64,000 nucleotides of DNA, taken from assembly GCA_041658185.1 (NCBI GenBank), contig JBBAAR010000001.1, positions 44,405 to 108,404 of the forward strand, in the 5' to 3' direction. Position 1 is the stretch's first letter; each line of letters starts with the position of its first letter. Below the pieces are notes generated by a model. The model was not told where the DNA came from and did not search any database. It saw only the letters and a program-made list of their open reading frames with translations. This DNA is from Elusimicrobiota bacterium. GTDB lineage: Bacteria > Elusimicrobiota > UBA8919. The position numbers and the translations under genes are program-made. Of this stretch, positions 10,889 through 61,720 are shown piece by piece.

Positions 10889-10980
10889 TTATGGAGTAAT
10901 CAGGCACAATCCAAAACTAATGATTTTCGCAAAAATCTAAATTTTATTGCTGCGGCTTTTCCGTTCCTCTTTAAATTCCT

Positions 10981-11103
10981 AAGCGAAGCAAGAAATTTGT
11001 AAGGAACCTTGAGGAGCGACTTCGCTTTCAGGAGCGACGAATAGAGCGAAATCCGACAGGGCGGTCGGATGAGCGTTTCCGACAAATTTGCTTGCGAGCG
11101 ACC
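10981..11103 (-). repeat. family-R intercistronic structured element, copy R3
   Basis: Shares the blocks TCGCTCG / GAAACGCTC(A/G)TC / (G/A)AGGTTC / ACAA / TTCGCT with 16167..16280 and 16601..16710. It starts 1 nt after the stop codon of the pseudo 3' end at 11105. Confidence 0.7.
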
Positions 11104-11104
11104 G

Positions 11105-11326
11105 TTAATCCTCTTTCAGGGCGGATTTTTCTGCGAAAGTTCTGTCGCGCATTGACAAAGCACCCGAGAAACATTTTTGGACGCAAATGCTGCAGCATAT
11201 ACATTTTTCCGCATCTGTCACAGGATGTTTGTCTTTATCAAGCGAGATTGACTGATACGGACACCTTGAACAATTACCGCAAATGAGATATATATCCGTA
11301 TTGCAATTTGTGATATCCGATTTTCT
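11105..11326 (-). pseudogene. displaced, diverged copy of the last ~73 codons (2x[4Fe-4S] tail) of the DPD-like gene
   Basis: Translates (minus) to RKSDITNCNTDIYLICGNCSRCPYQSISLDKDKHPVTDAEKCICCSICVQKCFSGALSMRDRTFAEKSALKED*. The intact gene reads ...KKISSCDTDVCLICGNCSRCPYQSISLDKDKHPVTDAEKCIGCSICVQKCFSGALSMRDRTPEEKSALKED*. There is no upstream coding continuation. Confidence 0.8.
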
Positions 11327-11848
11327 TTATCCCAAAAATCCTTTTATCTGCTTACGCGGTATTTGTAGTGGTTCAGGAGGATTTAATAAATTTTGTAGCA
11401 TTCTAAAAATATATTTTATCTGTGCGTCGTGTTCCTCAATTTTTTTCTGTAATTCTTTGTGGGTCACTAAAAATTCCCTTAATTTTACAAATGTTCTCAT
11501 AATTTGAATGTTCACTTGTATTGCTTTATTACTGTTTAATACACTTGAAAGCATAAGAATACCGTGTTCTGTAAAAACAAAAGGTTTATATCTTAAACCT
11601 TTTTTATCAGATTTGGAGGTGACAAATTGGCACCTCCAATTTGCAAATTCTTTTTCTGATAGTTCAAACATAAAATCAATAGGGAAGCGTTCTATATTCC
11701 TTCGCACCTGTCTTTTTAAGTATTTTACCTCAACTCCATACAACTCTGCTAAATCTCTGTCAAGCATTACTTTTTTGTCTCTGATTAATAAGATTTTACT
11801 TCCAATACGGTCTTCTGGAATACTGATTATTGAATTTTTCTTTTCCAT
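11327..11848 (-). CDS. ORF6N-domain (KilA-N-related) DNA-binding protein; inserted accessory gene
   Basis: ILLIRDKKVMLDRDLAELYGVEVKYLKRQVRRNIERFPIDFMFELS...KPFVFTEHGILMLSSVLNSNKAIQVNIQIMRTFVKLRE is the characteristic ORF6N pattern. Confidence 0.8.
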   Translation of the reverse strand: MEKKNSIISIPEDRIGSKILLIRDKKVMLDRDLAELYGVEVKYLKRQVRRNIERFPIDFMFELSEKEFANWRCQFVTSKSDKKGLRYKPFVFTEHGILMLSSVLNSNKAIQVNIQIMRTFVKLREFLVTHKELQKKIEEHDAQIKYIFRMLQNLLNPPEPLQIPRKQIKGFLG

Positions 11849-11919
11849 ATAATTTTATTTTACGATTTTTGACAAAAAAATCAAGACCGCTACAATTCGT
11901 GGATTTACATCCGCCGCTA

Positions 11920-14424
11920 CTAATCCTCTTTCAGGGCGGATTTTTCTTCGGGAGTTCTGTCGCGCATTGACAAAGCACCCGAGAAACATTTCTGGACACA
12001 GATGCTGCATCCGATACATTTTTCCGCATCTGTCACAGGATGTTTGTCTTTATCAAGCGAGATTGACTGATACGGACATCTTGAACAATTACCGCAGATA
12101 AGACACACATCCGTATCGCAGGATGAGATTTTTTTCACGGGCGTCAAATCCATAAAACCGGTAATCGGTTTCGGCAGCGCAATACCAATCAATTCTTTCA
12201 TTGATTTTATTCCGCGCTCTTTCATCAGGTAACTGGTGCCGTTGACAAGTTCATCAAAAACTCCGTAACCGTGTTTGGTTACAATGGTGCAGAACTGGAC
12301 CGTTTTTACTCCGAGCGCAAGAAAATTCATCGCCGATTTGTAATCCATAGGACCGCCGTTGCCGGAAACCGCAACACCCAAAGAAGATACGCTTGCAAGC
12401 GTGAGATAACTTATCGGAGTTACCCCGTCGCCGCTCATACCGACGACAATGCCTTCTTCCCATTCCTTTTTATTGCCCGGTCTGAAACACATCGTCGGAA
12501 AAGTATTCGCCAGAGTTATTCCGGCTTTTTTGTTCGGATATTTAGCAAAAACTTTTTTGATAGCATTCGCAATCGGGACTATGGACGTAACCGCAGCCGT
12601 AAGTTTGAAAAGTTTCGGGATTTCCGGGTCGCCGACCTCCATCACCCAGTCAATTATTTTTGCAGTCAGCGCGGCATTCTGCGAAACAATGTCGCCCTCA
12701 GTTCCGTCACCGCCCTGCGGGCAGGAAAGCGAATATTCTATTCCCATAACGCCGGACGCCTCAAGTTTTTTTGTATTTGACTGCCAGCCCTTTTTATCAT
12801 TTTCATCATTGCCGGTAACAGGCCCGCCGGTTGAAGCCATCGTCAGACGGTCGGGATATTCTTTAACCAGTTTTTGAATTTCCTTTACCACCCTGTCAAG
12901 ATGATGACCCGAAACATTGTCGCAGTTCCCGTAAGTCAAATCATTGAAAGCATGCATATATTCGCCGGGGATGTGAATAGGCACGTTGTCAAACGAGGTC
13001 TTCATTATGCCGCCCGACCAACCCGCTTCGTACGCTTTTTTCATCTGGTCGTAACCATCGGAAGGAGGTGCTGCGGAAAGCAAAAACGGCGTTGAAATTT
13101 TTCTGCCGAAAAAGTCGGTTTCAAGAGACACAGGAATTTGCGTGTACCCCTTCAGCACAACATCGCTTTTCACTTTATTTTTGAAAACAGGTTTTTTCAA
13201 CCCATTGATGTATGCATCAATTTCCACTGCCGTATTTTTTCCTGCGGCAGTCGCTTCCACGACGGTAGTCGGACCCTGTACGGAATCGCCGGCATAAAAT
13301 ACGGATGGGTTATCTGATTTTTCCTTTTTAGAACGAGCACCGATTGCAATTATTACCGTTGATACATCGTTTCTGACCTGATTTGTGCCCGGCACTTCTT
13401 TTATATCTTTGAGATTAAATTTTACGCCTTTTGGAAGCGAAACTTTTACCGTCTCAAGACCTGAAATATCTTTGCCTTTTTTAAGAATTGCCGTAACCCG
13501 CGTCCTTCCCGTTATTTCAATATTGTTTTCAAGAAGTTCATTCATCTCTCTGGGCGTCAGCGGCATTTCGCCGACAGTTTCCAGAGCGAGCATTTCAACA
13601 TTTGACGCGCCGCCTGCGGATTTCGCTGTCATCGCAGCGTCTGCGGCAGTCGCGCCGCCGCCGATAACCGCAACCTTGCCTTTAAGTTTATATTTTTTCG
13701 GATTTTTCAGATAATCCAATCCGACAATTGCAAGGTCTTCATTTTCAATACCCGCTTTTATCGGCTCGGTAAGACCTGTTGCCGCAAGAACTGCGTCATA
13801 GCCTTTTTTTAACAGTGTTTCCAGATTTTCTATCTCTGAATTTAATTTTATGTTTATATCGCCGAGTGTTGTCAGGAATTTTAGATCCTCTTTAAGCATC
13901 TTTTTTTCTAACCGGTATTCGGGAATCAGATTGCTCATTCCGCCTGCAAAATTTTCTTTTTCATAAATGTCAACTTTATAGCCGAGAGAACCGAGAACGG
14001 ACGCAGCGCCCAAACCGGCAGGTCCCGAACCTATTATCGCAACTTTTTTCCCGTTCGGTTTCGGCTTGGAAAATTCAGCGAGCCCGCCCAACTCCCTGGC
14101 TTTTTTTACAATTGTCGCCTGGACGGCAGGAATATTCACCGCAGAATCAAATTTTTTATGAACGCAGGCGGCAACACAAAACCTGTCGGGGCAGACCATG
14201 CCGCAGACGCCGCCGAACGGATTGTTTTTCATTATTTGGGCGGCAGACCTTTTTATATCCGAATTGCCGAAAACCCTTGCAGCCATAATAAAATCAGCCG
14301 CCGAACAGTCGCAGGGACACTTCTCCTTGCAGGGTTTCTCCTCGCAGAACTCGCATTTCGCAAATTCATTTTTTAATTGCGCATCCGTCAAAAAAAGCCC
14401 GTCATAAACAGATTTTTCAGCCAT
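11920..14424 (-). CDS. dihydropyrimidine dehydrogenase-like fusion (GltD/PreT-like FAD/NADPH module + PreA/DHODH-like FMN barrel + 2x[4Fe-4S])
   Basis: N-terminal Cys cluster CEFCEEKPCKEKCPCDC. Dinucleotide folds VAIIGSGPAGLGAA and VAVIGGGATAADAA. FMN domain PFLLSAAPPSDGYDQMKKAYEAGWSGGIMKTSF and LSCPQGGDG. C-terminal CLICGNCSRCP ... CIGCSICVQKC. Confidence 0.85.
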   Translation of the reverse strand: MAEKSVYDGLFLTDAQLKNEFAKCEFCEEKPCKEKCPCDCSAADFIMAARVFGNSDIKRSAAQIMKNNPFGGVCGMVCPDRFCVAACVHKKFDSAVNIPAVQATIVKKARELGGLAEFSKPKPNGKKVAIIGSGPAGLGAASVLGSLGYKVDIYEKENFAGGMSNLIPEYRLEKKMLKEDLKFLTTLGDINIKLNSEIENLETLLKKGYDAVLAATGLTEPIKAGIENEDLAIVGLDYLKNPKKYKLKGKVAVIGGGATAADAAMTAKSAGGASNVEMLALETVGEMPLTPREMNELLENNIEITGRTRVTAILKKGKDISGLETVKVSLPKGVKFNLKDIKEVPGTNQVRNDVSTVIIAIGARSKKEKSDNPSVFYAGDSVQGPTTVVEATAAGKNTAVEIDAYINGLKKPVFKNKVKSDVVLKGYTQIPVSLETDFFGRKISTPFLLSAAPPSDGYDQMKKAYEAGWSGGIMKTSFDNVPIHIPGEYMHAFNDLTYGNCDNVSGHHLDRVVKEIQKLVKEYPDRLTMASTGGPVTGNDENDKKGWQSNTKKLEASGVMGIEYSLSCPQGGDGTEGDIVSQNAALTAKIIDWVMEVGDPEIPKLFKLTAAVTSIVPIANAIKKVFAKYPNKKAGITLANTFPTMCFRPGNKKEWEEGIVVGMSGDGVTPISYLTLASVSSLGVAVSGNGGPMDYKSAMNFLALGVKTVQFCTIVTKHGYGVFDELVNGTSYLMKERGIKSMKELIGIALPKPITGFMDLTPVKKISSCDTDVCLICGNCSRCPYQSISLDKDKHPVTDAEKCIGCSICVQKCFSGALSMRDRTPEEKSALKED

Positions 14425-14436
14425 CTTCTTCTCCTC

Positions 14437-15789
14437 CTATCTTTTTAAAAATTTTCCGTAACTGCTAACCGACGTAAATTTGCCGTTATCATAAATTATT
14501 TTTCCGCGAAGCAGCGTCATAACCGTTTTGCCCGTGATTTTCATATTCTGATAAGGACTCCAGCCGCAGTTTGTATTAAGTTTTTTGTAATCAATCCGCC
14601 ACTTTACCTTCGGGTCAAAAATTGTTAAATCGGCATCGCTTCCGATTTTTATGCAGCCCTTTTTAGGATACAGCCTGAAAATTTTTGCGGGGTTTTGAGA
14701 TGTCACTTCCGTAAGTTTTTTCAGCGTTATTCTTTTTTTCACAACGCCTTCCGAAAATAAAATCGGAAACGATGTTTCAACCCCGGGCATACCGAACCTT
14801 AAATTCCTGAAATCATTTTTTGCTTTCTGCTTATCTTTTTTTGAAAATGCGCAGTGGTCGGTTGCAACCGTTTTCACGGTATCGTTTTTCAGACCGTCCC
14901 ACAACGCTTTATTATCAGACGGTAATTTCACCGGCGGACAGGTCGCAAAAAGATAACCGTCTTTTTTTTCGAAAACATTTTTATTCAGGACAAGATACTG
15001 CGGACAGGTTTCAATAATAACTTTAACGCCTTTTTTTCTCGCGGTCTCGGCAATTTTTACAGCGCCTTCCGTAGTCGTATGAACAACATAAAGATTTCCA
15101 TTAGATTTTTCAGCAAGAAATACCGCGTGATTTACTGCTTCTTCTTCCGCAATGTTCGGTCTTGTGTAATAAAAATTTGAAACGACCGTTTTTTTACAGT
15201 CAACAAAACTTTTAATAAATCCGTCTATAAGAGGGCTGCTTTCGGCATGAACTTCTATAAGTGCCGAAAATCTTTTTGACGCTTCCAAAATTTTCAGCAA
15301 CTCGTAATCGCCGACGCCCCAACCTTCCGTTTTCGGCATAAAAACCTTAAATGATGTGATGCCGTATTTTACAAGTTTTTTAAAATCGCTTTGACTCTGA
15401 TTGTTCCAGTTGACGATTTGCGAATGGAAAGAATAATCAATATATGATTTTTTGGCTTCAATCTTGCGGCGGGTCAGCGATTCAAACATCGTCTCGTTTT
15501 TTAGAGGAATTGCATAATCAATAACTGTTGTAACTCCGCCGGCAGCAGCGGATTTAGTTCCGCTTAAAAAATCATCCGAAGTTCTTGAACCATATGCTTT
15601 AAGACCAAAATGGGTATGGGCATCTATAACACCGGGGAAAATATATTTATTTCTTGCATCTATAATTTTGCAATTTTTCAGGAATTGGATTTTTCCGATT
15701 TTTGCAATTTTTTCACCGGATATAAAAATATCCGCATTAAATATTTTGTCAGCGGTTATAATTGTTCCGTTTTTTATAAGAAGGTTCAT
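14437..15789 (-). CDS. dihydropyrimidinase / D-hydantoinase
   Basis: Cyclic amidohydrolase signature PGVIDAHTHF, SFKVFM (carboxylated-Lys region), EVHAE, VVHTTT, ATDHCAF. Confidence 0.85.
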   Translation of the reverse strand: MNLLIKNGTIITADKIFNADIFISGEKIAKIGKIQFLKNCKIIDARNKYIFPGVIDAHTHFGLKAYGSRTSDDFLSGTKSAAAGGVTTVIDYAIPLKNETMFESLTRRKIEAKKSYIDYSFHSQIVNWNNQSQSDFKKLVKYGITSFKVFMPKTEGWGVGDYELLKILEASKRFSALIEVHAESSPLIDGFIKSFVDCKKTVVSNFYYTRPNIAEEEAVNHAVFLAEKSNGNLYVVHTTTEGAVKIAETARKKGVKVIIETCPQYLVLNKNVFEKKDGYLFATCPPVKLPSDNKALWDGLKNDTVKTVATDHCAFSKKDKQKAKNDFRNLRFGMPGVETSFPILFSEGVVKKRITLKKLTEVTSQNPAKIFRLYPKKGCIKIGSDADLTIFDPKVKWRIDYKKLNTNCGWSPYQNMKITGKTVMTLLRGKIIYDNGKFTSVSSYGKFLKR

Positions 15790-15791
15790 TT

Positions 15792-16145
15792 TTATTTTTT
15801 TAGGGGTCTGTTTTTTTCGTCGAGAAAAACAATCTTCGGTTTGTATTTTTTTGCTCTTTCTTCTTCAACAAACTCATTTGAAATAATTATAAGCTCGTCG
15901 CCGACTTCGCCGAGACGGGCAGCGCCGCCGTTCAACTCAATGCATCCCGAGTTTTTTTTACCGACAAGCACATATGTCTCAAATCTGGCGCCGGTGGTTT
16001 TGTTAACGACCAGCACGATTTCATAAGGATAGATATCGGCAAGGTCCATAAGGTTTCTGTCAATTTTTATGGAACCGAGATAATTCAGATTTTTGCCCGT
16101 AATTTTTGCCAACTGTATTTTTGACTTTGCCATCATTCTGAACAT
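15792..16145 (-). CDS. panD: aspartate 1-decarboxylase
   Basis: MFRMMAKSKIQLAKITGKNLNYLGSIKID carries the Gly-Ser self-cleavage site. 117 aa. Stop is 2 nt from the dihydropyrimidinase start. Confidence 0.9.
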   Translation of the reverse strand: MFRMMAKSKIQLAKITGKNLNYLGSIKIDRNLMDLADIYPYEIVLVVNKTTGARFETYVLVGKKNSGCIELNGGAARLGEVGDELIIISNEFVEEERAKKYKPKIVFLDEKNRPLKK

Positions 16146-16166
16146 TTTATCACCCCTTTAATAATA

Positions 16167-16280
16167 AGCGAGGGAGTTGTTGAGCAGAACCTCACGGAGT
16201 TCCGCATTCGCATTCAGCGGAACGAGTGAGAGCCCGCCTGCAGAGACGAGGCGTTTCTGCAAGACAATTCCCGAGCGACT
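16167..16280 (-). repeat. family-R intercistronic structured element, copy R1
   Basis: Starts inside the stop codon of the upstream gene (TAGtcgctcgg). Hairpin TGCAGA-aacgcctcg-TCTGCA. Closing helix gggaattgt/acaactccc. Confidence 0.7.
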
Positions 16281-16590
16281 ATTCAAGCATATAATCTTCA
16301 AACGGAATTTTTTTCTTTCTTAAATCCTCTTTCCATTTTTCAAGCGCAATAGGCATTTGTTCTTTTGACATTTTTACCCATTTTGAGTTAGGCGGAGAAA
16401 ATTGCTCAACCGACGTCTGATACCACACATATGCCATTTTCCAGTCATTTTTCCGGGCGGCTTTGTCCGCTTCCATATATGAGTGTTTGGCACGAAACCA
16501 TACATCAAGATAAATCATAATGTACATCGCTATAACGGTTAAAATTACGGCACCGGCAGAACGGACCCATTTTTTATTAAACATAATCAT
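16279..16590 (-). CDS. small membrane protein, function unknown
   Basis: One N-terminal TM helix (GAVILTVIAMYIMIYLDVWF). Strong SD (GGGGAGG) upstream. Flanked on both sides by family-R elements. Confidence 0.5.
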   Translation of the reverse strand: MIMFNKKWVRSAGAVILTVIAMYIMIYLDVWFRAKHSYMEADKAARKNDWKMAYVWYQTSVEQFSPPNSKWVKMSKEQMPIALEKWKEDLRKKKIPFEDYMLE

Positions 16591-16600
16591 TTACCTCCCC

Positions 16601-16710
16601 AGCGAAGGAGAAATTTTTGTAGAACCTCAATTTGCGACTTATTCGTTCCAGGAGCAAATTGCAGAGCGAGTTCTGACGAGCGTTTCAAAAAAATTTGCTC
16701 CGAGCGATTT
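16601..16710 (-). repeat. family-R intercistronic structured element, copy R2
   Basis: Fills the whole gap between the response-regulator stop and the next SD. Hairpin TTTTGA-aacgctcg-TCAGAA. Closing helix ggagcaaattttt/aaaaatttctcc. Confidence 0.7.
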
Positions 16711-17112
16711 TTAAACATCGTATCCCCCTAAAATTTTTTTTATATCTACCGCAAAAACAGCGGGGTCGAGCGGTTTGGAATAAAAACCCTTCACATTCGG
16801 TTGTGACTTTACAAAATCATAAGTCGTGCCGTCGGCAAATTTACCGGTAATAACAAATACCGGAATATTTTTTGTGTTTTCATTTTGCTGAAGCGATTTT
16901 AACACCTGAAACCCGCCCTGTTTAGGAAGCATAAGATCAAGTACAATGATGTCCGGTTGCGCTTCAGGAATTTTTTTAAGCGCTTCTTCGCCGTCTAATG
17001 CGGTAAAAACCTCAAGATTTTCTTTTTCAAGAATATGTTTAAAAAGTTCAACTATATTGGGGTCATCGTCAACAATAAATGCTTTTTTGTTCATAATTTG
17101 CAATTTTATCAA
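16711..17112 (-). CDS. stand-alone response-regulator receiver (CheY-like)
   Basis: AFIVDDDPNIVELF...PDIIVLDLMLPKQGGFQVLKSL...PVFVITGK, with the acidic pocket and phospho-acceptor Asp context. Confidence 0.85.
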   Translation of the reverse strand: MIKLQIMNKKAFIVDDDPNIVELFKHILEKENLEVFTALDGEEALKKIPEAQPDIIVLDLMLPKQGGFQVLKSLQQNENTKNIPVFVITGKFADGTTYDFVKSQPNVKGFYSKPLDPAVFAVDIKKILGGYDV

Positions 17113-17117
17113 TTTTT

Positions 17118-18188
17118 TTACTGTTTGTCAATCCCGCTTATGAAAATTTTAACGGACGGACTTTTCCCCGTATTTTCCCAGATGTCGGTTGCACAAACCC
17201 GAATAAAAAGTGCGGATGCGTCGCGCTTTTTGTTCTCATATCCGATATCTGCCGATAATTTTTTAGGATTTAGCGAAAATACATACGGAGCAGTGTAAAA
17301 AATTAAACCGTGTTTTTTCCAAATTTTTTTGTCTTGGGAAATTTCAAGCCAGACCTTCTGGATTTCGTTGGCAAGCACGGAAGCATAAATTACTTTTTTT
17401 TCGGCGAGCGTTTCGCCCTCTGTTATACCCATTAAACCGATTGTTATATTTTGTGATAATTCCGGGACAAATTTTATTGCGATAGCCGGTTCAAAAACAG
17501 TTATCGGCGATTTAAGTGTTGTCGTGCTGTAATGCTGCGGCGGGGCGCCTTTTATTTCGTCATTGATAAAACTGTTGGTATCCTTATTGCCCCAGGCAGC
17601 AGCGATTATCGGACTATTTGAAGAATCGGTTAAATATGCGGATGTTGACCAAAGAGCAATATAATTTTCGCCGCCGAAATTTATTTCGTCTGACCGGACT
17701 TCAGTCCAAAACCATCGGGATTCGCCGGCCTGCTCAATGGCAAGTTCATTATCGCCTTCAAAAGGAATATCATCGGTAGCTGTCAGAAATCCCCAATTTG
17801 ATTTTTTCCACGACGGTGTTGATGACACCGCCATAAAAATATCACCCGGAATTGCTTCTTTGTCAAGCGCGGGTTTTCCGTTATTATAAACTTGCTTTGA
17901 TTTCATCCGCCCGAGTTTGGCTCCGATAAAAATTTTTTTGTAATCTGAAAAATTCCCCGGTATGAATATTTTTTCTATCCAGACCCTGTTGTAACCGACA
18001 TACCAAAAACCGTCCCATCCTCCGCCGTTGGCAAAAAGCCGGTAATCATTCGGGTTTCCCGCAGCAGAAAGATAAAGAGGATATGAAATTGTCGTCTGAC
18101 CGTAAAAAAAAGTGAGAACGTGAAAAAGTAAGAAAGTGAGAAGGAAAAACCTAATGGTTTTTAAGCCACACTTTAACTGTCGCAGCAT
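17118..18188 (-). CDS. secreted protein, function unknown
   Basis: Long ORF with an N-terminal hydrophobic segment; I recognise no domain. It overlaps the upstream gene's end by 38 nt. Confidence 0.5.
   Translation of the reverse strand: MLRQLKCGLKTIRFFLLTFLLFHVLTFFYGQTTISYPLYLSAAGNPNDYRLFANGGGWDGFWYVGYNRVWIEKIFIPGNFSDYKKIFIGAKLGRMKSKQVYNNGKPALDKEAIPGDIFMAVSSTPSWKKSNWGFLTATDDIPFEGDNELAIEQAGESRWFWTEVRSDEINFGGENYIALWSTSAYLTDSSNSPIIAAAWGNKDTNSFINDEIKGAPPQHYSTTTLKSPITVFEPAIAIKFVPELSQNITIGLMGITEGETLAEKKVIYASVLANEIQKVWLEISQDKKIWKKHGLIFYTAPYVFSLNPKKLSADIGYENKKRDASALFIRVCATDIWENTGKSPSVKIFISGIDKQ
18112..18143 (-). repeat. 4 tandem 8-nt units (GTGAGAAC GTGAAAAA GTAAGAAA GTGAGAAG on +) encoding a signal-peptide core
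   Basis: Read directly. Encodes LLTFLLFHVLTF of ORF 17118..18188. Confidence 0.8.
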
Positions 18189-24898: not shown

Positions 24899-25744
24899 AT
24901 GAGCAATAATACCGTATATCTTCCTAAGAATCTACCTGAAGCGTTAAAAATACTTAATAACAGTAAGGAAAAGATTTTATTGCTTGCCGGCGGCACTACC
25001 ATTCTAATAAATCCAACCGAGAACGCTTCATACATAGAACTGGACGGACTGAATCTGGATTACATTAAATCAGACAAAAACAACATTTCGGTCGGAGCAA
25101 TGACAACAATCGGACAATTATCAGTTTGGCCGCAAGCCGCAAAATATTGGAACGGTTTAATCCGGAAATGTGCTATTACAATAGCATCAACGCCTAACAG
25201 AAATATGATTACGGCAGGCGGCAATATAGTTGGCTTACGACCATGGTCGGCGCTCGCGGGAGTTCTGCTTTTGCTGGACGGTAAAATAATCACGGCAAAA
25301 GGAAAAAATTATCCGGCAAAGGAATTTTTTTCCAAACTTCCGAAAACCATATTGGGAAAAGATATCGTTACTGAAATCAGAATTCCGCTGGACAGCAAAG
25401 ATTTAACCGGCGGATGGAAAAAGTTTTCTCTTACCGATACCGATTATCCTATTTTAAGCATGGGCGTACTTTATAAACTAAAAAACAAAAACACAATTGA
25501 AAACATAAAAATAGCCGTAACCGGACTGACAGTTCTTCCTCAGAGATTTATAAAAACCGAGAAACTGCTTAAAAACAAACAACTGACGGCTCATACGATA
25601 AAATTGCTGATAAAATCACTTCAAAACGAAGCGGTTATCGGCGCGGACATCCGTGTTGCATCAGAATATAAACGGGAAATATTAGGAGCAATCTTTCTTG
25701 AATTAGTCGCTCGCAAGCAAATTTCTTTGGTCGCTCCAAGATAA
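24899..25744 (+). CDS. xanthine-dehydrogenase-family FAD-binding (medium) subunit, enzyme 1
   Basis: CoxM/XdhB-like LLAGGTTILIN, GAMTTIGQL, ASTPNRNMITAGGNIV. The last 12 codons (VARKQISLVAPR) are encoded by an R-type repeat fragment. Confidence 0.85.
   Translation: MSNNTVYLPKNLPEALKILNNSKEKILLLAGGTTILINPTENASYIELDGLNLDYIKSDKNNISVGAMTTIGQLSVWPQAAKYWNGLIRKCAITIASTPNRNMITAGGNIVGLRPWSALAGVLLLLDGKIITAKGKNYPAKEFFSKLPKTILGKDIVTEIRIPLDSKDLTGGWKKFSLTDTDYPILSMGVLYKLKNKNTIENIKIAVTGLTVLPQRFIKTEKLLKNKQLTAHTIKLLIKSLQNEAVIGADIRVASEYKREILGAIFLELVARKQISLVAPR
25706..25744 (+). repeat. R-type repeat fragment forming the 3' end of the FAD-subunit CDS
   Basis: GTCGCTCGCAAGCAAATTT (25706..25724) is identical to the 5' end of element R3 (reverse complement of 11082..11100). 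Confidence 0.65.
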
Positions 25745-25758
25745 AAAAGGTTAAAAAA

Positions 25759-26347: not shown

Positions 26348-28666
26348 ATGGCAAATACTAAATTCAGTCAAGTCGGAAAAAGCAAAATAAAGGTTGACGG
26401 ACAGGCGCTTGTCACCGGCCAGCCGGTGTTCGTAGGTGATTTTATCATACCGGGCATGCTATGGGCGAAAGTTTTATGGAGTCCGCACGCCCACGCCAGA
26501 ATAAAAAAAATAGACACATCCAAAGCTGAAAAATTGCCAGGCGTAAAAGCCGTTCTCACATATAAAGACGTCCCGCGAATTCCGTTCACGACAGCAGGGC
26601 AGGGTGCGCCGGAGCCGTCGCCATATGATTCTTTCATATTAGATAATAAGGTAAGGTTCGTCGGTGATAGAGTGGCAGCGGTCGCGGCGGAAACGGAAGA
26701 AATCGCAAACGAGGCGCTGAGACAGATAAAAGTTGACTATGAGATTTTGGAGGCGATACTTGACCCGAAGAATTCCAGAAAAAAAAACGCCCCTGTAATC
26801 CACGACGAGAAAGAAGCCCACATGCCGCTGCCTCTTAAATATGACCCCAAAAAAAATATCTGCGCTCATATAGATATAAAAATCGGCGACGCGGAAAAAG
26901 CCTTGAAAGAATCTGACTATGTTATTGAGCATGAATACGATATTCATTACGCGCAGCACACTCCGATAGAGACACATATCTCAACCGCATATTTTGACGT
27001 TCACGGGAGAATGGTGATAATAACAAGCACTCAAGTCCCGTTCCACGTGCGCAGAATAGTCGCAAGATCGCTGAATATTCCGGTACAAAAAATCAGAGTG
27101 ATAAAACCGCGTATCGGCGGCGGTTTCGGAGCAAAACAGGAAGTTCTTATTGAGCCGTTAGTCGCCGCACTTGCGATGAAAACCAATCAGGCGGTATGCT
27201 TAAAATACACGAGAAGCGAGGAATTCGTATCCTCAAGATGCAGACATCCTCAGATAATAAATCTTAAAACCGGCGTAAAAAAAGACGGCACATTTTCCGC
27301 AATAGATATGAGAATACTTCAGAATAACGGAGCGTACGGTTCCCACAGTTTAACGATACTTTGCAACACGGGCAGCAAAATTCTTCCGCTATTCAAATGC
27401 AAGAATGTAATCTTCAACGGAGATGTTGTCTATACAAATCTTCCTGTTTGCGGAGCATACCGCGGCTACGGCGCTACCGAGGGATATTTCGCGATGGGAA
27501 TCCAATTGGACGAAATGGCTGATAAAATCGGCGTTGATATCGTGAACTGGTGCAAAAAAATTCACATAAAAGAAGGCGAGACATCACCCGTTTTTGCGGC
27601 GCTCGGCGAAGGAGTTGAAGGCGTTGAGCAGAATATTTCTTCCTGCGGACTTGATAAATGCATTGAATTGGGCGCGAAAGAAATCAACTGGTACCAAAAA
27701 AGAAGAAAAAAACAAACAGGCAGATACAGACGCGGAGTCGGAATGGTAATAATGATGCAGGGCTCGTCCATTCCGGAAATAGATATGGGCGCCGCATTTA
27801 TGAAAATGAATGAGGACGGCTCGTTTAATCTGCTTATAGGCGCAACGGACCTCGGAACCGGCTCAGATACTATTATGGCGCAGATTGCAGCGGAAGTTCT
27901 GGCTACTGAGACGGAAAAAATGATTGTTTATTCGTCCGATACCGACTTAACGCCTTTTGACGTCGGGGCATATGCGTCAAGCACAACATATCTTTCAGGG
28001 CAGGCGGTAATAAAAACGGCTCAAAAAGTAAAAGAACAGATACTGAAAGTCGCCGCGGAAATGCTTAAAGAACCGCTGGAAAATCTTAAAGCGGAACATT
28101 CTACGGTGATCGGGAAAAACGGAAAAGTTACCTTCTCTGAAATCGCAAATTATTCGCTTTACACAAAACATCAGCACCAGATAATGGCAGGCGAGTCGCA
28201 CATCACCCATAAATCCCCCCCGCCGTTTTCGGCTCACTTTGGCGAAGTGGAAGTAGATACTCTGACCGGCAAAGTGCGGGTTATAAAATATGTTGCGGCG
28301 GTGGATTGCGGAACTGCAATTAACCCGATTTCGGCGGAAGGTCAGACGGAGGGCGCGGTTTTAAACGGCTTGTCATATGCGCTCTGCGAAAGATACATAT
28401 TCAACGAAAAAGGCAAGATGTTAAATCCCAATTTTAATTATTACAAAATTTTTTCCACGATGGACCTGCCGGAACTTAAAACGATTTTGGTGCCGACTTA
28501 CGAACCGACCGGACCTTTCGGAGCGAAAAGCGTTTCCGAAATAGGAATTAACGGCCCGTGTCCGGTGATTGCCAATGCTATATATGACGCCGTCGGAGCG
28601 CGTCTATATAATGCCCCTTTCACGCCGGATAAAGTGCTTGCGGCAATAAAAAAAATCGCTCGCTAG
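26348..28666 (+). CDS. xanthine-dehydrogenase-family molybdopterin-binding (large) subunit, enzyme 1
   Basis: GGGFGAKQE, CGAYRGYGATEG and GAKSVSEIGING motifs; 772 aa. Confidence 0.9.
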   Translation: MANTKFSQVGKSKIKVDGQALVTGQPVFVGDFIIPGMLWAKVLWSPHAHARIKKIDTSKAEKLPGVKAVLTYKDVPRIPFTTAGQGAPEPSPYDSFILDNKVRFVGDRVAAVAAETEEIANEALRQIKVDYEILEAILDPKNSRKKNAPVIHDEKEAHMPLPLKYDPKKNICAHIDIKIGDAEKALKESDYVIEHEYDIHYAQHTPIETHISTAYFDVHGRMVIITSTQVPFHVRRIVARSLNIPVQKIRVIKPRIGGGFGAKQEVLIEPLVAALAMKTNQAVCLKYTRSEEFVSSRCRHPQIINLKTGVKKDGTFSAIDMRILQNNGAYGSHSLTILCNTGSKILPLFKCKNVIFNGDVVYTNLPVCGAYRGYGATEGYFAMGIQLDEMADKIGVDIVNWCKKIHIKEGETSPVFAALGEGVEGVEQNISSCGLDKCIELGAKEINWYQKRRKKQTGRYRRGVGMVIMMQGSSIPEIDMGAAFMKMNEDGSFNLLIGATDLGTGSDTIMAQIAAEVLATETEKMIVYSSDTDLTPFDVGAYASSTTYLSGQAVIKTAQKVKEQILKVAAEMLKEPLENLKAEHSTVIGKNGKVTFSEIANYSLYTKHQHQIMAGESHITHKSPPPFSAHFGEVEVDTLTGKVRVIKYVAAVDCGTAINPISAEGQTEGAVLNGLSYALCERYIFNEKGKMLNPNFNYYKIFSTMDLPELKTILVPTYEPTGPFGAKSVSEIGINGPCPVIANAIYDAVGARLYNAPFTPDKVLAAIKKIAR

Positions 28667-28689
28667 TAAATTTTTCCCTCGCTTGCGAT
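28655..28689 (+). repeat. R-type repeat fragment / imperfect hairpin overlapping the large-subunit stop codon
   Basis: ATCGCTCGCTAGtaaatttttccCTCGCTTGCGAT. The outer ATCGC/GCGAT arms pair. It supplies the terminal codons ...IAR*. Confidence 0.5.
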
Positions 28690-28702
28690 AAAAAATAGAA
28701 AT

Positions 28703-39818: not shown

Positions 39819-39910
39819 TTTTTTATTTTTATTTTCAAGCGAGCGAGTGAAAAGCAAACTTGTTTGTTTTTCCGAGTGAGCGCTGAAAACAAAGGGTTAA
39901 ATACCCTTTA
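39819..39910 (-). repeat. family-R4 repeat, copy a (follows a KK-stop)
   Basis: The core ttcaagcgagcgagYgaaaagcaaacttgtttgtttttccgagYgaRcgctgaaaacaaag is shared with 48961..49046, with 3 mismatches. Confidence 0.8.
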
Positions 39911-48960: not shown

Positions 48961-49046
48961 TTTTTTATTTTCAAGCGAGCGAGCGAAAAGCAAACTTGTT
49001 TGTTTTTCCGAGCGAACGCTGAAAACAAAGAGTTTACTATCCTTTA
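48961..49046 (-). repeat. family-R4 repeat, copy b (follows a KK-stop)
   Basis: See 39819..39910. It begins at the stop codon of the HEAT-repeat gene. Confidence 0.8.
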
Positions 49047-61560: not shown

Positions 61561-61720
61561 AAAAAAGCCAAGTTACCTAAAACAACTGTGCCCAATTATT
61601 GAACACAGCATTATCTTCGGTAACCCGGCTAACTTTTATCCTTCGGCAACTCGGCGAACTCTCAAAAAGTCCCGTGGTTTTGCGTCCCCGACTCGCGTCG
61701 GCTCTGGCTTTTGCCAGAGG
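61561..61720 (-). promoter_or_regulatory. probable GEMM-I (c-di-GMP-I class) cyclic-dinucleotide riboswitch with intrinsic terminator
   Basis: Minus strand: UCUGGC-AAAAGCCAGAG-CCGAC-GCGA-GUCGG-GGACGCAAAACCACGGGAC...GUUAGCCGGGUUACCGAAG. It has a GNRA-capped hairpin, the ACGCAAA(G/A)CC-CGGG core and the AGCCGGGUUACCGA 3' strand. AGCCGGGUUACC (61630..61619) can alternatively pair with GGUAACUUGGCU (61577..61566), which is followed by U6. Confidence 0.6.

Follow-up and report, generated by a model that had tools for sequence, protein, structure and literature searches.

Two structured elements in an Elusimicrobiota operon are probably copies of a new MITE/REPIN-like non-coding repeat adapted to operon junctions

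What are the two related, structured elements R1 and R2 that bracket a small membrane-protein gene in an operon of an Elusimicrobiota bacterium, and is their structure a sign of regulation of the genes behind them? The window referred to below is the whole stretch of 64,000 nucleotides that was analysed (contig JBBAAR010000001.1, positions 44,405 to 108,404). The initial annotation described R1 and R2 as related minus-strand elements, each filling an intercistronic gap and starting 0-3 nt past a stop codon, and the coordinates of the following features confirm this description.

17103..17131, minus strand: promoter-like site TTGACA-17-TAAAAT with TG (11/12) upstream of the response-regulator gene, a consensus match only
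17112-16711, minus strand: response-regulator gene
16713..16711, minus strand: stop codon TAA of the response-regulator gene; the R2 core begins 3 nt further on
16601..16710, minus strand: R2, full-length copy of the dominant R2 subfamily (132.3 bits), between the response-regulator stop codon and the small membrane-protein gene
16707..16601, minus strand: core of R2, TCGCTCGG...TTCGCT
16590-16279, minus strand: gene of a 103-aa membrane protein without Pfam family
16281..16279, minus strand: stop codon TAG of the small-protein gene, directly abutting the R1 core
16167..16280, minus strand: R1, full-length copy of the R1 subfamily (59.4 bits), between the small-protein stop codon and panD
16278-16167, minus strand: core of R1, TCGCTCGG...CTCGCT
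16145-15792, minus strand: panD
15789-14437, minus strand: amidohydrolase (dihydropyrimidinase-like) gene
14424-11920, minus strand: dihydropyrimidine-dehydrogenase-like gene

R2 is followed by GGGGAGGTAA and the small-protein ATG at 16590, and R1 by TATTATTAAAGGGGTGATAAA and the panD ATG at 16145; the position of the 3' strand CTCC(C/T)TCGCT next to the Shine-Dalgarno sequence (SD) of the following gene is thereby confirmed. To judge from its sequence, the promoter-like site looks as if it would put R2 and R1 on a single, putative polycistronic transcript, and no promoter- or terminator-like sites were detected inside R1 or R2. The sequence blocks listed as common to the two elements are present in both. 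The pattern TCGCTCGG-N5-30-GAAACGC-N0-2-TCGTC matches the window only at the R1 and R2 sites, and the same block pattern gave 0 matches in 100 dinucleotide shuffles of the window. In Rfam 15, small ribozymes included, R1 and R2 are without a match at gathering score, with nothing relevant up to an E-value of 10, in line with the earlier statement that they cannot be assigned to a known RNA family. An exact look-up of the small membrane protein returned no identical record. Taken individually, R1 folds far better than its shuffled versions (z = -4.2), and R2 alone folds no better than its shuffled versions (z = -0.2 to -0.7).

Further copies of R1 and R2 were sought with a covariance model built from 18 copies and run on the window and the fetched contigs. 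This search yielded 102 distinct copies, all of them from one low-GC clade of Elusimicrobia. In the metagenome-assembled genome (MAG) JACRDL, copies occur on approximately 19 contigs, and in UBA4817 on 17. When species-representative genomes were scanned with a pattern, copies were revealed on many contigs of five Elusimicrobia MAGs; four pattern matches outside the Elusimicrobia lie in GC-rich genomes and are attributed to chance, as are all matches of a first genome scan with a loose pattern, likewise in GC-rich genomes. The same pattern as in the species-representative scan occurs on 24 metagenome contigs with names pointing to groundwater samples, e.g., Hainich H41 and H43. With a pattern for the 5' arm, 50 real stretches were obtained in Elusimicrobia, 38 of them newly fetched, and one further match is due to chance. 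At least three subfamilies (R1, R2, and R3 types) can be distinguished. Copies are usually about 108-145 nt long, some being longer, with nested small hairpins, and others being short, internally deleted forms. Several contigs terminate within a copy, as expected because the family is a repeat.

The consensus fold is a three-way junction closed by helix P1 and carrying a small hairpin P2 and a longer hairpin P3. From 5' to 3' the element consists of the invariant box TCGCTCG, the P1-closed junction, and the 3' box CTCGCT. P1 comprises 13 pairs plus three more past a small internal loop, and its arms form imperfect inverted repeats of 13-20 bp at the element ends. In 68 distinct sequences, 98.4% of the cells are paired and 19 of the 33 pairs display compensatory changes on both sides (192 cells), a covariation reached in 0 of 500 shuffles; if the partner is slid by 1-3 columns, pairing falls to 35-59% of the cells. 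Fitting of the alignment to the model does bias the result toward the structure, yet the margin remains large. Swaps between the arms are visible in the raw sequences as well (GGGAA/TTCCC, GGGAG/CTCCC, GGAAG/CTTCC, and GCAAG/CTTGC). A MAFFT re-alignment of trimmed copies misaligned R1 and was left out of the analysis.

R1 and R2 thus belong to a structured element with statistically supported covariation, as had been proposed, and the observation that their closing helices and third hairpins differ and are paired all the same extends to the whole family in the form of compensatory changes. Less fortunate was the proposed loop hairpin (TGCAGA/TCTGCA in R1, TTTTGA/TCAGAA in R2), the arms of which are indeed complementary in both elements but do not represent the pairing that is conserved in the family. 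In the consensus, GAA/GAG of the motif GA(A/G)AC pairs with (T/C)TC of GAGG(T/C)TC, one of these pairs being G-C in 58 copies and A-U in 6, and the smaller hairpin then follows. As to the strand on which the fold is formed, the consensus pairs contain 101 G-U cells vs. 14 A-C cells, most of the G-U cells being supplied by two columns. The folding energy of the whole element is -39.4 kcal/mol in antisense vs. -34.1 kcal/mol in sense, i.e., the antisense strand is the more stable one, and in only 11 of 91 copies does the sense strand fold better. An assignment of the strand of action from thermodynamics was therefore rejected, since the G-U excess and the stability of the antisense strand point in opposite directions.

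A comparison of orthologous loci bears on the nature of the family. The small protein led to 18 loci, all of them in Elusimicrobia genomes. In the closest relatives, L121, L122, and L123, the gene order of the operon is kept, and the occupation of its junctions is as follows.

Response regulator/small protein junction: R2 in the window; empty in L121, L122, and L123
Small protein/panD junction: R1 in the window; R1 orthologue with 93.8% identity in L121; empty in L122 and L123
panD/amidohydrolase junction: empty in the window (TAAAAATG); R2-type copy in L121; empty in L122; R3-type copy in L123

At the empty response-regulator junction of L121, L122, and L123, the two genes overlap by ATGTTTAA. 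The more distant loci L124 and L125 contain unrelated palindromic repeats at the small-protein/panD junction. Outside this operon, an R1-type copy adjacent to a tRNA gene is present in L172 and L219 and missing from L163, and the R2-type copy of L171 corresponds to an R3-type copy in L150. Filled/empty orthologous pairs are available for four sites. Hence, the elements come and go at the junctions of one conserved operon, and in closely related genomes the family as a whole is gained, lost, internally deleted, and exchanged between subfamilies at orthologous sites. That R1 and R2 bracket the small membrane-protein gene is therefore coincidental: two independent insertions have entered the same operon, at sites that are empty in relatives.

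The R1 orthologue in L121, the closest relative, differs from R1 of the window at 7 of 112 positions. Of these seven changes, three disrupt pairs, namely two pairs of P3 and one of P1, without any compensation, which speaks against a local constraint on R1. The genes flanking R1 display 85-92% identity at third codon positions between the window and L121. Other orthologous copies are more conserved than their flanks (96% vs. 89-90% and 94% vs. 84%). That orthologous copies are at least as conserved as the flanking DNA could point away from neutral decay and toward functional constraint or gene conversion.

The comparison of filled with empty sites also delimits the inserted DNA of R2.

16711..16718, minus strand: left copy of an 8-bp duplication, ATGTTTAA, containing the response-regulator stop codon
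16585..16600, minus strand: 3' tail of the R2 insertion, GGGGAGGTAAATGATT
16577..16584, minus strand: right copy of the 8-bp duplication, ATGTTTAA, containing the ancestral start codon of the small protein

The tail of R2 brings a new SD and the in-frame ATG at 16590, both of which are missing at the empty sites. Including this case, three insertions (R2 of the window and those of L121 and L123) are located at junctions that have an overlap or a 2-nt spacer when empty, and behind each of them lie an SD-like sequence and a start codon, both absent from the empty site. At the panD/amidohydrolase junction, the insertion of L121 brings CCGGGAGAAAGAATTGAACAAATG and that of L123 brings CTGGAAAAAAGAATG, where the old ATG is now ATA. 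The tail C(C/T)GCGAT(T)AAAAAAGG is shared by copies of all three subfamilies at unrelated loci, and related forms are also found after antisense copies in L213. In its general form, C(C/T)GCGAT(T)A-rich-GG, the tail is recognisable in only about 30% of the copies, and an outer ATCGC/GCGAT pair is confined to these tail-bearing copies. No donor locus for the unusual tail of R2 was detected among the fetched loci. At the opposite end, ATAG, GTAG, or AAAG precedes the 5' box in roughly a third of the copies. In case of the L172/L163 pair, the inserted segment stops at the 3' box and is without a duplication. TA occurs on both sides of many copies and could belong to the element itself. A uniform target duplication could not be established, as neither TA nor 8 bp is consistent across the four filled/empty pairs.

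The window itself holds five copies of the family, three full-length ones and two short ones, as well as two related short elements. In addition to R1 and R2, these are the following.

10966..11105, minus strand: R3, full-length copy of the R3 subfamily, TCGCTCGCAAGCAAATTTGTCGGAAACGC... (62.4 bits)
25703..25751, plus strand: short, internally deleted copy (TCGCTCGCAAGCAAATTTCTTTGGTCGCTCC AAGATAAAAAAGG; 15 bits, E = 0.036) with an exact match to the 5' arm
28652..28699, plus strand: short copy (TCGCTCGCTAGTAAATTTTTCCCTCGCT TGCGATAAAAAA), supported by the covariance model and a full-length orthologue in L156
39826..39883, minus strand: related short element with the TCGCTCGG box, a simple hairpin, and TCGCTCGCT (11.4 bits, weak)
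48962..49019, minus strand: second, near-identical related short element (14.7 bits)

A 3' remnant of the dihydropyrimidine-dehydrogenase-like gene is present as a duplicate, and R3 follows the stop codon of this remnant. The short copy at 25703..25751 lies between two plus-strand genes, the upstream one of which runs into the copy. In L156, a full-length copy occupies the orthologous site, so the short copy at 28652..28699 has arisen by deletion between the AAATTT stretches in both arms. The related short elements at 39826..39883 and 48962..49019 are each located between two minus-strand genes. All seven copies of the window follow the direction of the genes through flips from minus to plus and back to minus within 40 kb, which argues against an effect of the replication strand.

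The same regularity holds across the family. With the coding strand called by codon-usage log-odds trained on long ORFs of these loci, copies are in sense to the upstream gene in 60 cases vs. 5 in antisense (p = 5e-13), and in sense to the downstream gene in 54 cases vs. 3 (p = 4e-13). The stop codon of the upstream frame ends 0-4 nt ahead of TCGC in 56 of 75 copies, and a stop triplet occupies this position in 82 of 100 copies vs. 22-30 of 100 at control offsets. Exceptions are given by a few antisense copies between genes and by copies that abut tRNA genes in either orientation. The genes downstream are unrelated to each other and encode GroEL, MetRS, GpsA, PdxA, MoaC, a RecN-like protein, ETF-alpha, a FecCD permease, a LysM-M23 peptidase, and UDPGP, and essential operons such as groES-groEL contain copies as well. 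The family has no conserved ORF: 29 of 91 copies are without an open frame, and in the others it is not always the same frame that is open. Many cores measure 108, 109, or 110 nt, and in the window only R2 is spanned by an ORF. The 12:1 sense bias and the exact adjacency to stop codons are not explained by a plain DNA transposon; they need either strong selection or a mechanism linked to RNA or transcription.

According to the initial annotation, the 3' strand of the element acts as a mimic of the anti-SD sequence that could pair with the SD of the following gene. For R2 in its context, folding predicts an alternative structure in which the 5' arm GGAGCAAAUU pairs perfectly with AAUUUGCUCC of P3, and the 3' arm AUUUCUCC that is thereby freed pairs with the SD GGGGAGGU at a probability of about 0.9. 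In case of R1, the closing helix forms in context and the panD SD GGGUGA is predicted to be paired (probability of being unpaired 0.01-0.07), but its partner is the 5' UCGCUC box, and this pairing is not kept in the L121 orthologue. For 73 copies with automatic and thus noisy calls of start codon and SD, the mean unpaired probability of the SD is 0.49 with the real element vs. 0.40 with a shuffled element, and in only 20 of the 73 is the SD less accessible than in the shuffled control. Masking of the SD as a family-wide property was rejected, the SD being on average more accessible than in the control. The 3' strand thus retains its proposed role as a prediction for R2, and the proposal holds neither for R1 nor for the family.

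Considering the evidence as a whole, R1 and R2 are probably copies of a new non-coding repeat of the MITE/REPIN kind that is adapted to operon junctions; at orthologous sites, the family is seen to behave in the manner of a putative non-autonomous mobile element. That either of them is a dedicated cis-regulatory RNA, in which the closing helix competes with a pairing of the 3' strand and the SD of panD or the small gene, appears very improbable. Such a switch is suggested by the predicted pairing of the R2 SD GGGGAGGU with the 3' arm AUUUCUCC and by the predicted pairing of the panD SD behind R1. It is at odds with the partner of the latter, which is the 5' box and not the 3' strand and is lost in L121, with the family-wide accessibility of the SD (0.49 vs. 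0.40), with the occurrence of the same element ahead of unrelated genes, and with relatives that carry the same operon with both sites empty. Due to the roughly 100 other sites, the empty sites of the relatives, and the broken pairs of the R1 orthologue, a regulator acting specifically on panD or the small gene is not supported, and the dedicated cis-regulatory reading appears to be largely refuted by the comparative data. If R1 or R2 influence panD or the small gene at all, they would do so only incidentally, e.g., through changes in processing, stability, or coupling. Rather doubtful is a host-selected intercistronic module that provides a useful sense-strand RNA in many operons, be it as a processing site of RNase III or RNase E, as a protection of the 3' end of the upstream cistron, or as a means of keeping or tuning translational coupling through an approach of the stop codon to the next start, and that would have become domesticated after spreading through recombination or former mobility. 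The strong sense bias and the tracking of gene direction, the exact stop-codon adjacency, the compensatory changes that keep the structure, the conservation of orthologous copies at or above that of their flanks, the presence in essential operons such as groES-groEL, and the on average accessible SD are all in agreement with such a module, and so is the precedent of effects on mRNA stability and processing, which are orientation-dependent and involve RNase E in case of ERIC and consist in RNase III processing in case of Correia elements (PMC2229807). Opposed to it are the variable presence at one and the same junction in close relatives with unchanged gene order, the pair-breaking changes of the R1 orthologue, the persistence of short deleted remnants, the at least equal stability of the antisense fold, and the existence of antisense and tRNA-adjacent copies.

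The mode of movement leaves room for further explanations. A system of the REPIN/RAYT type, in which a Y1 (HUH) transposase encoded by a single-copy gene recognises the hairpin of a single-stranded-DNA fold together with a 5' (A/G)TAG ahead of TCGCTCG and moves the element without target duplication, seems quite unlikely to us. The clean empty/filled pair without duplication, ATAG, GTAG, or AAAG ahead of the box in many copies, and the ability of both strands to fold are consistent with it, as are the hairpins with compensatory changes, which are also known from REPINs (PMC3116915). A Y1 transposase was not detected in the fetched loci with a weak query, though, and within 40 kb the orientation follows transcription instead of a single replication direction; moreover, the element is built as a three-way junction in which the TCGCT boxes are direct, and not from two inverted REPs, and the R2 insertion carries an 8-bp duplication. 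In detail, a tblastn search with an IS200-type TnpA sequence in approximately 0.8 Mb around the copies returned nothing with E < 0.2, and an inspection of the ORFs beside antisense or convergent copies revealed no transposase; by eye, we take these ORFs to be sugar-phosphate isomerase-like, DinG-like helicase-like, and V-ATPase subunit I-like. Neither a RAYT gene nor a transposase gene with matching ends was found in the fetched loci, with the weak query and the approximately 0.8 Mb mentioned. A recombination site or a repeat of another system, such as an integron attC site or a solitary CRISPR-like repeat, would be in accordance with the position of copies after ORF stop codons and in a single orientation, and the first 27-28 nt (GTCGCTC...GAAAC) presumably bear a superficial resemblance to some CRISPR repeats. 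Since the base of the helix is TCGCTCGG.../...CCCTCGCT, RYYYAAC/GTTRRRY core sites are absent, the copies are solitary and scattered among housekeeping genes without arrays, and the small gene keeps its position where the flanking elements are missing, this explanation is extremely improbable. Finally, it is conceivable, if unlikely, that the family represents a portable intercistronic region with a stop codon at its start, meeting ends, and its own ribosome-binding site, which would make it specifically adapted to insertion between translationally coupled genes. Its fold would then be a structural bypass that hands terminating ribosomes to the next start, and the near-exclusive sense orientation would imply an involvement of the RNA or of transcription itself in spread or retention.

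Returning to the preferred reading, a mobile repeat adapted to operon junctions, the simplest account is that insertion right behind a stop codon and in sense orientation is either tolerated or targeted. P1 would pull the ends of the element together and thereby keep the stop codon upstream near the ribosome-binding site downstream, and at junctions without a spacer the inserted DNA would supply a new SD and sometimes a new start codon. Jointly, closure of P1 and the supplied SD might enable the element to sit in an operon with little polar effect. Antisense copies were presumably purged, because SD-like GGAG and GAGGGA motifs would be exposed. The fold may be conserved since only fold-competent copies propagate, or since only those are tolerated, and we infer that its conservation is explicable without a host function at any single locus. 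REPINs are likewise mobile, and their hairpins keep compensatory changes under a selection that acts on the replicative unit and not on a function for the host (PMC3116915).

A structured, covarying intergenic sequence in uncultivated bacteria can be a selfish repeat and not a regulator, which calls for caution in the automated discovery of RNA motifs. If the placement is an adaptation to operon junctions, the family offers a natural test of how much structure is tolerated by translational coupling and polycistronic expression, and it might serve as a tool in the form of a compact insulating spacer for synthetic operons. In practical terms, the repeats account for several of the contig breaks in these MAGs. 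Overall, the family is of moderate interest for the biology of mobile elements and operons.

Among known systems, the family resembles MITEs in that it is short and non-coding, occurs in many dispersed copies with terminal inverted repeats, and is found at filled and empty sites; it departs from riboswitches, as no consistent association with functionally related genes was observed. Like a REPIN, it is a hairpin repeat, probably non-autonomous, and it may share with REPINs a short conserved motif 5' of the hairpin. REPINs, however, consist of two inverted REP units, lie at random in extragenic space according to published descriptions, and are tied to a RAYT gene that they flank, whereas the placement of the R family is strongly non-random and no RAYT gene was found for it (approximately 0.8 Mb, weak query). 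RUP, an IS630-derived MITE of about 107 bp with terminal inverted repeats and many intergenic copies, is similar in size and arrangement (PMC2229807). Both RUP and the R family have TA on both sides of many copies, which in case of the R family may be part of its own ends, and unlike for RUP, no insertion sequence with matching ends was present in the fetched R-family loci. To our knowledge, RUP has not been reported to be confined to stop-proximal, sense-oriented positions.

Intercistronic repeats that are transcribed are known in the form of MIRU, ERIC, and Correia elements (PMC12548453, PMC2229807, PMC3184786). ERIC (IRU) and Correia (NEMIS) elements share with the R family the form of imperfect palindromes of approximately 100-160 bp with ends that form a long hairpin, and they are transcribed together with the flanking genes (PMC2229807). 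They differ from it by their restriction to Proteobacteria and the absence of sequence similarity, and Correia elements additionally by promoter and IHF motifs and a TA duplication. We know of no sense bias or stop-codon adjacency of comparable strictness for either of them. MIRUs come closest in placement: like the R family, they are short, intercistronic in operons, co-oriented with the flanking genes, and polymorphic between relatives. They are transcribed in polycistronic mRNA, and their insertion is thought to be minimally disruptive to the expression of the next gene (PMC12548453, PMC3184786). A MIRU works via a small ORF that overlaps the neighbouring stop and start codons, whereas the R family is without a conserved ORF; a coupling ORF of the MIRU type was rejected for the family on the basis of the 29 of 91 copies that lack an open frame. 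Furthermore, the R family possesses a long terminal helix and a three-way junction, occurs in a different phylum, and has no sequence similarity to MIRU. The R family thus combines the terminal helix of a MITE with a placement like that of MIRU, i.e., in sense, after stop codons, and sometimes bringing an SD of its own.

In all copies of R, the dispersed structured repeat family found at operon junctions, 3-6 hexamers per element read TCGCTC or differ little from it, always on the same strand. These hexamers are mostly unpaired, being located in the 5' box, at the junction of hairpins P2 and P3, and in the 3' box, and could represent a protein-binding or cleavage motif. At tRNA genes, R copies are located either antisense between two tRNAs or in sense immediately past the tRNA 3' end. 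Direct adjacency to tRNA genes was observed at L172:1-420, L163:1550-1960, L173, L183, and L219:3900-4430 in other Elusimicrobia; one of these sites is empty in L163.

Two short elements, which are internally deleted R copies, are entered by upstream ORFs:

24899-25744, plus strand: ORF reading into the short element at 25703-25751 and stopping within it
26348-28666, plus strand: ORF reading into the short element at 28652-28699 and stopping within it

Because these ORFs end inside the elements, element DNA supplies the codons for the final few residues of both encoded proteins.

R1 and R2 lie in an apparent single operon (17131-11920, minus strand; window 11920-17131), which encodes a response regulator, a conserved small membrane protein, PanD, a dihydropyrimidinase-like amidohydrolase, and a fused dihydropyrimidine-dehydrogenase-like (DPD-like) enzyme. 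Two beta-alanine routes would thus adjoin in this operon. In the region 11106-11920 (minus strand), the end of the DPD-like gene, approximately 190 nt, recurs as a second, remnant copy past the true gene end, and R3 is located after the stop of this remnant. The arrangement looks like a duplication of the gene end by an insertion event. The corresponding features are:

17131-17103, minus strand: strong promoter-like site, by sequence match
11920, minus strand: stop at the true end of the DPD-like gene, first copy of the approximately 190-nt end
11848-11327, minus strand: 173-aa ORF between both end copies
11300-11106, minus strand: remnant second copy of the approximately 190-nt end

Elsewhere in the window, a c-di-GMP-I riboswitch aptamer is situated at 61616-61718 (minus strand; 50.2 bits versus a gathering score of 35).

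In more distant relatives, the junction of the small-protein gene and panD carries palindromic repeats unrelated to R (L124:4304-4400, L125:2271-2420, and on both sides of the small gene in L129). Different repeat families have colonised this junction independently. Some R copies contain one or two nested units of a smaller hairpin repeat, CCTGCCTnnCGGnAGGCAGG (L152:2462-2610 and L160:7375-7604).

The whole of R2 is covered by a 43-codon ORF (16587-16718, minus strand), whose ATG, the left ATGTTTAA, overlaps the response-regulator stop and whose TGA overlaps the ATG at 16590 (ATGA). In this respect R2 resembles MIRU, as it shows a chain of overlapping stops and starts in the window; in contrast to MIRU, however, this chain, seen at R2, is not a property of the R family.
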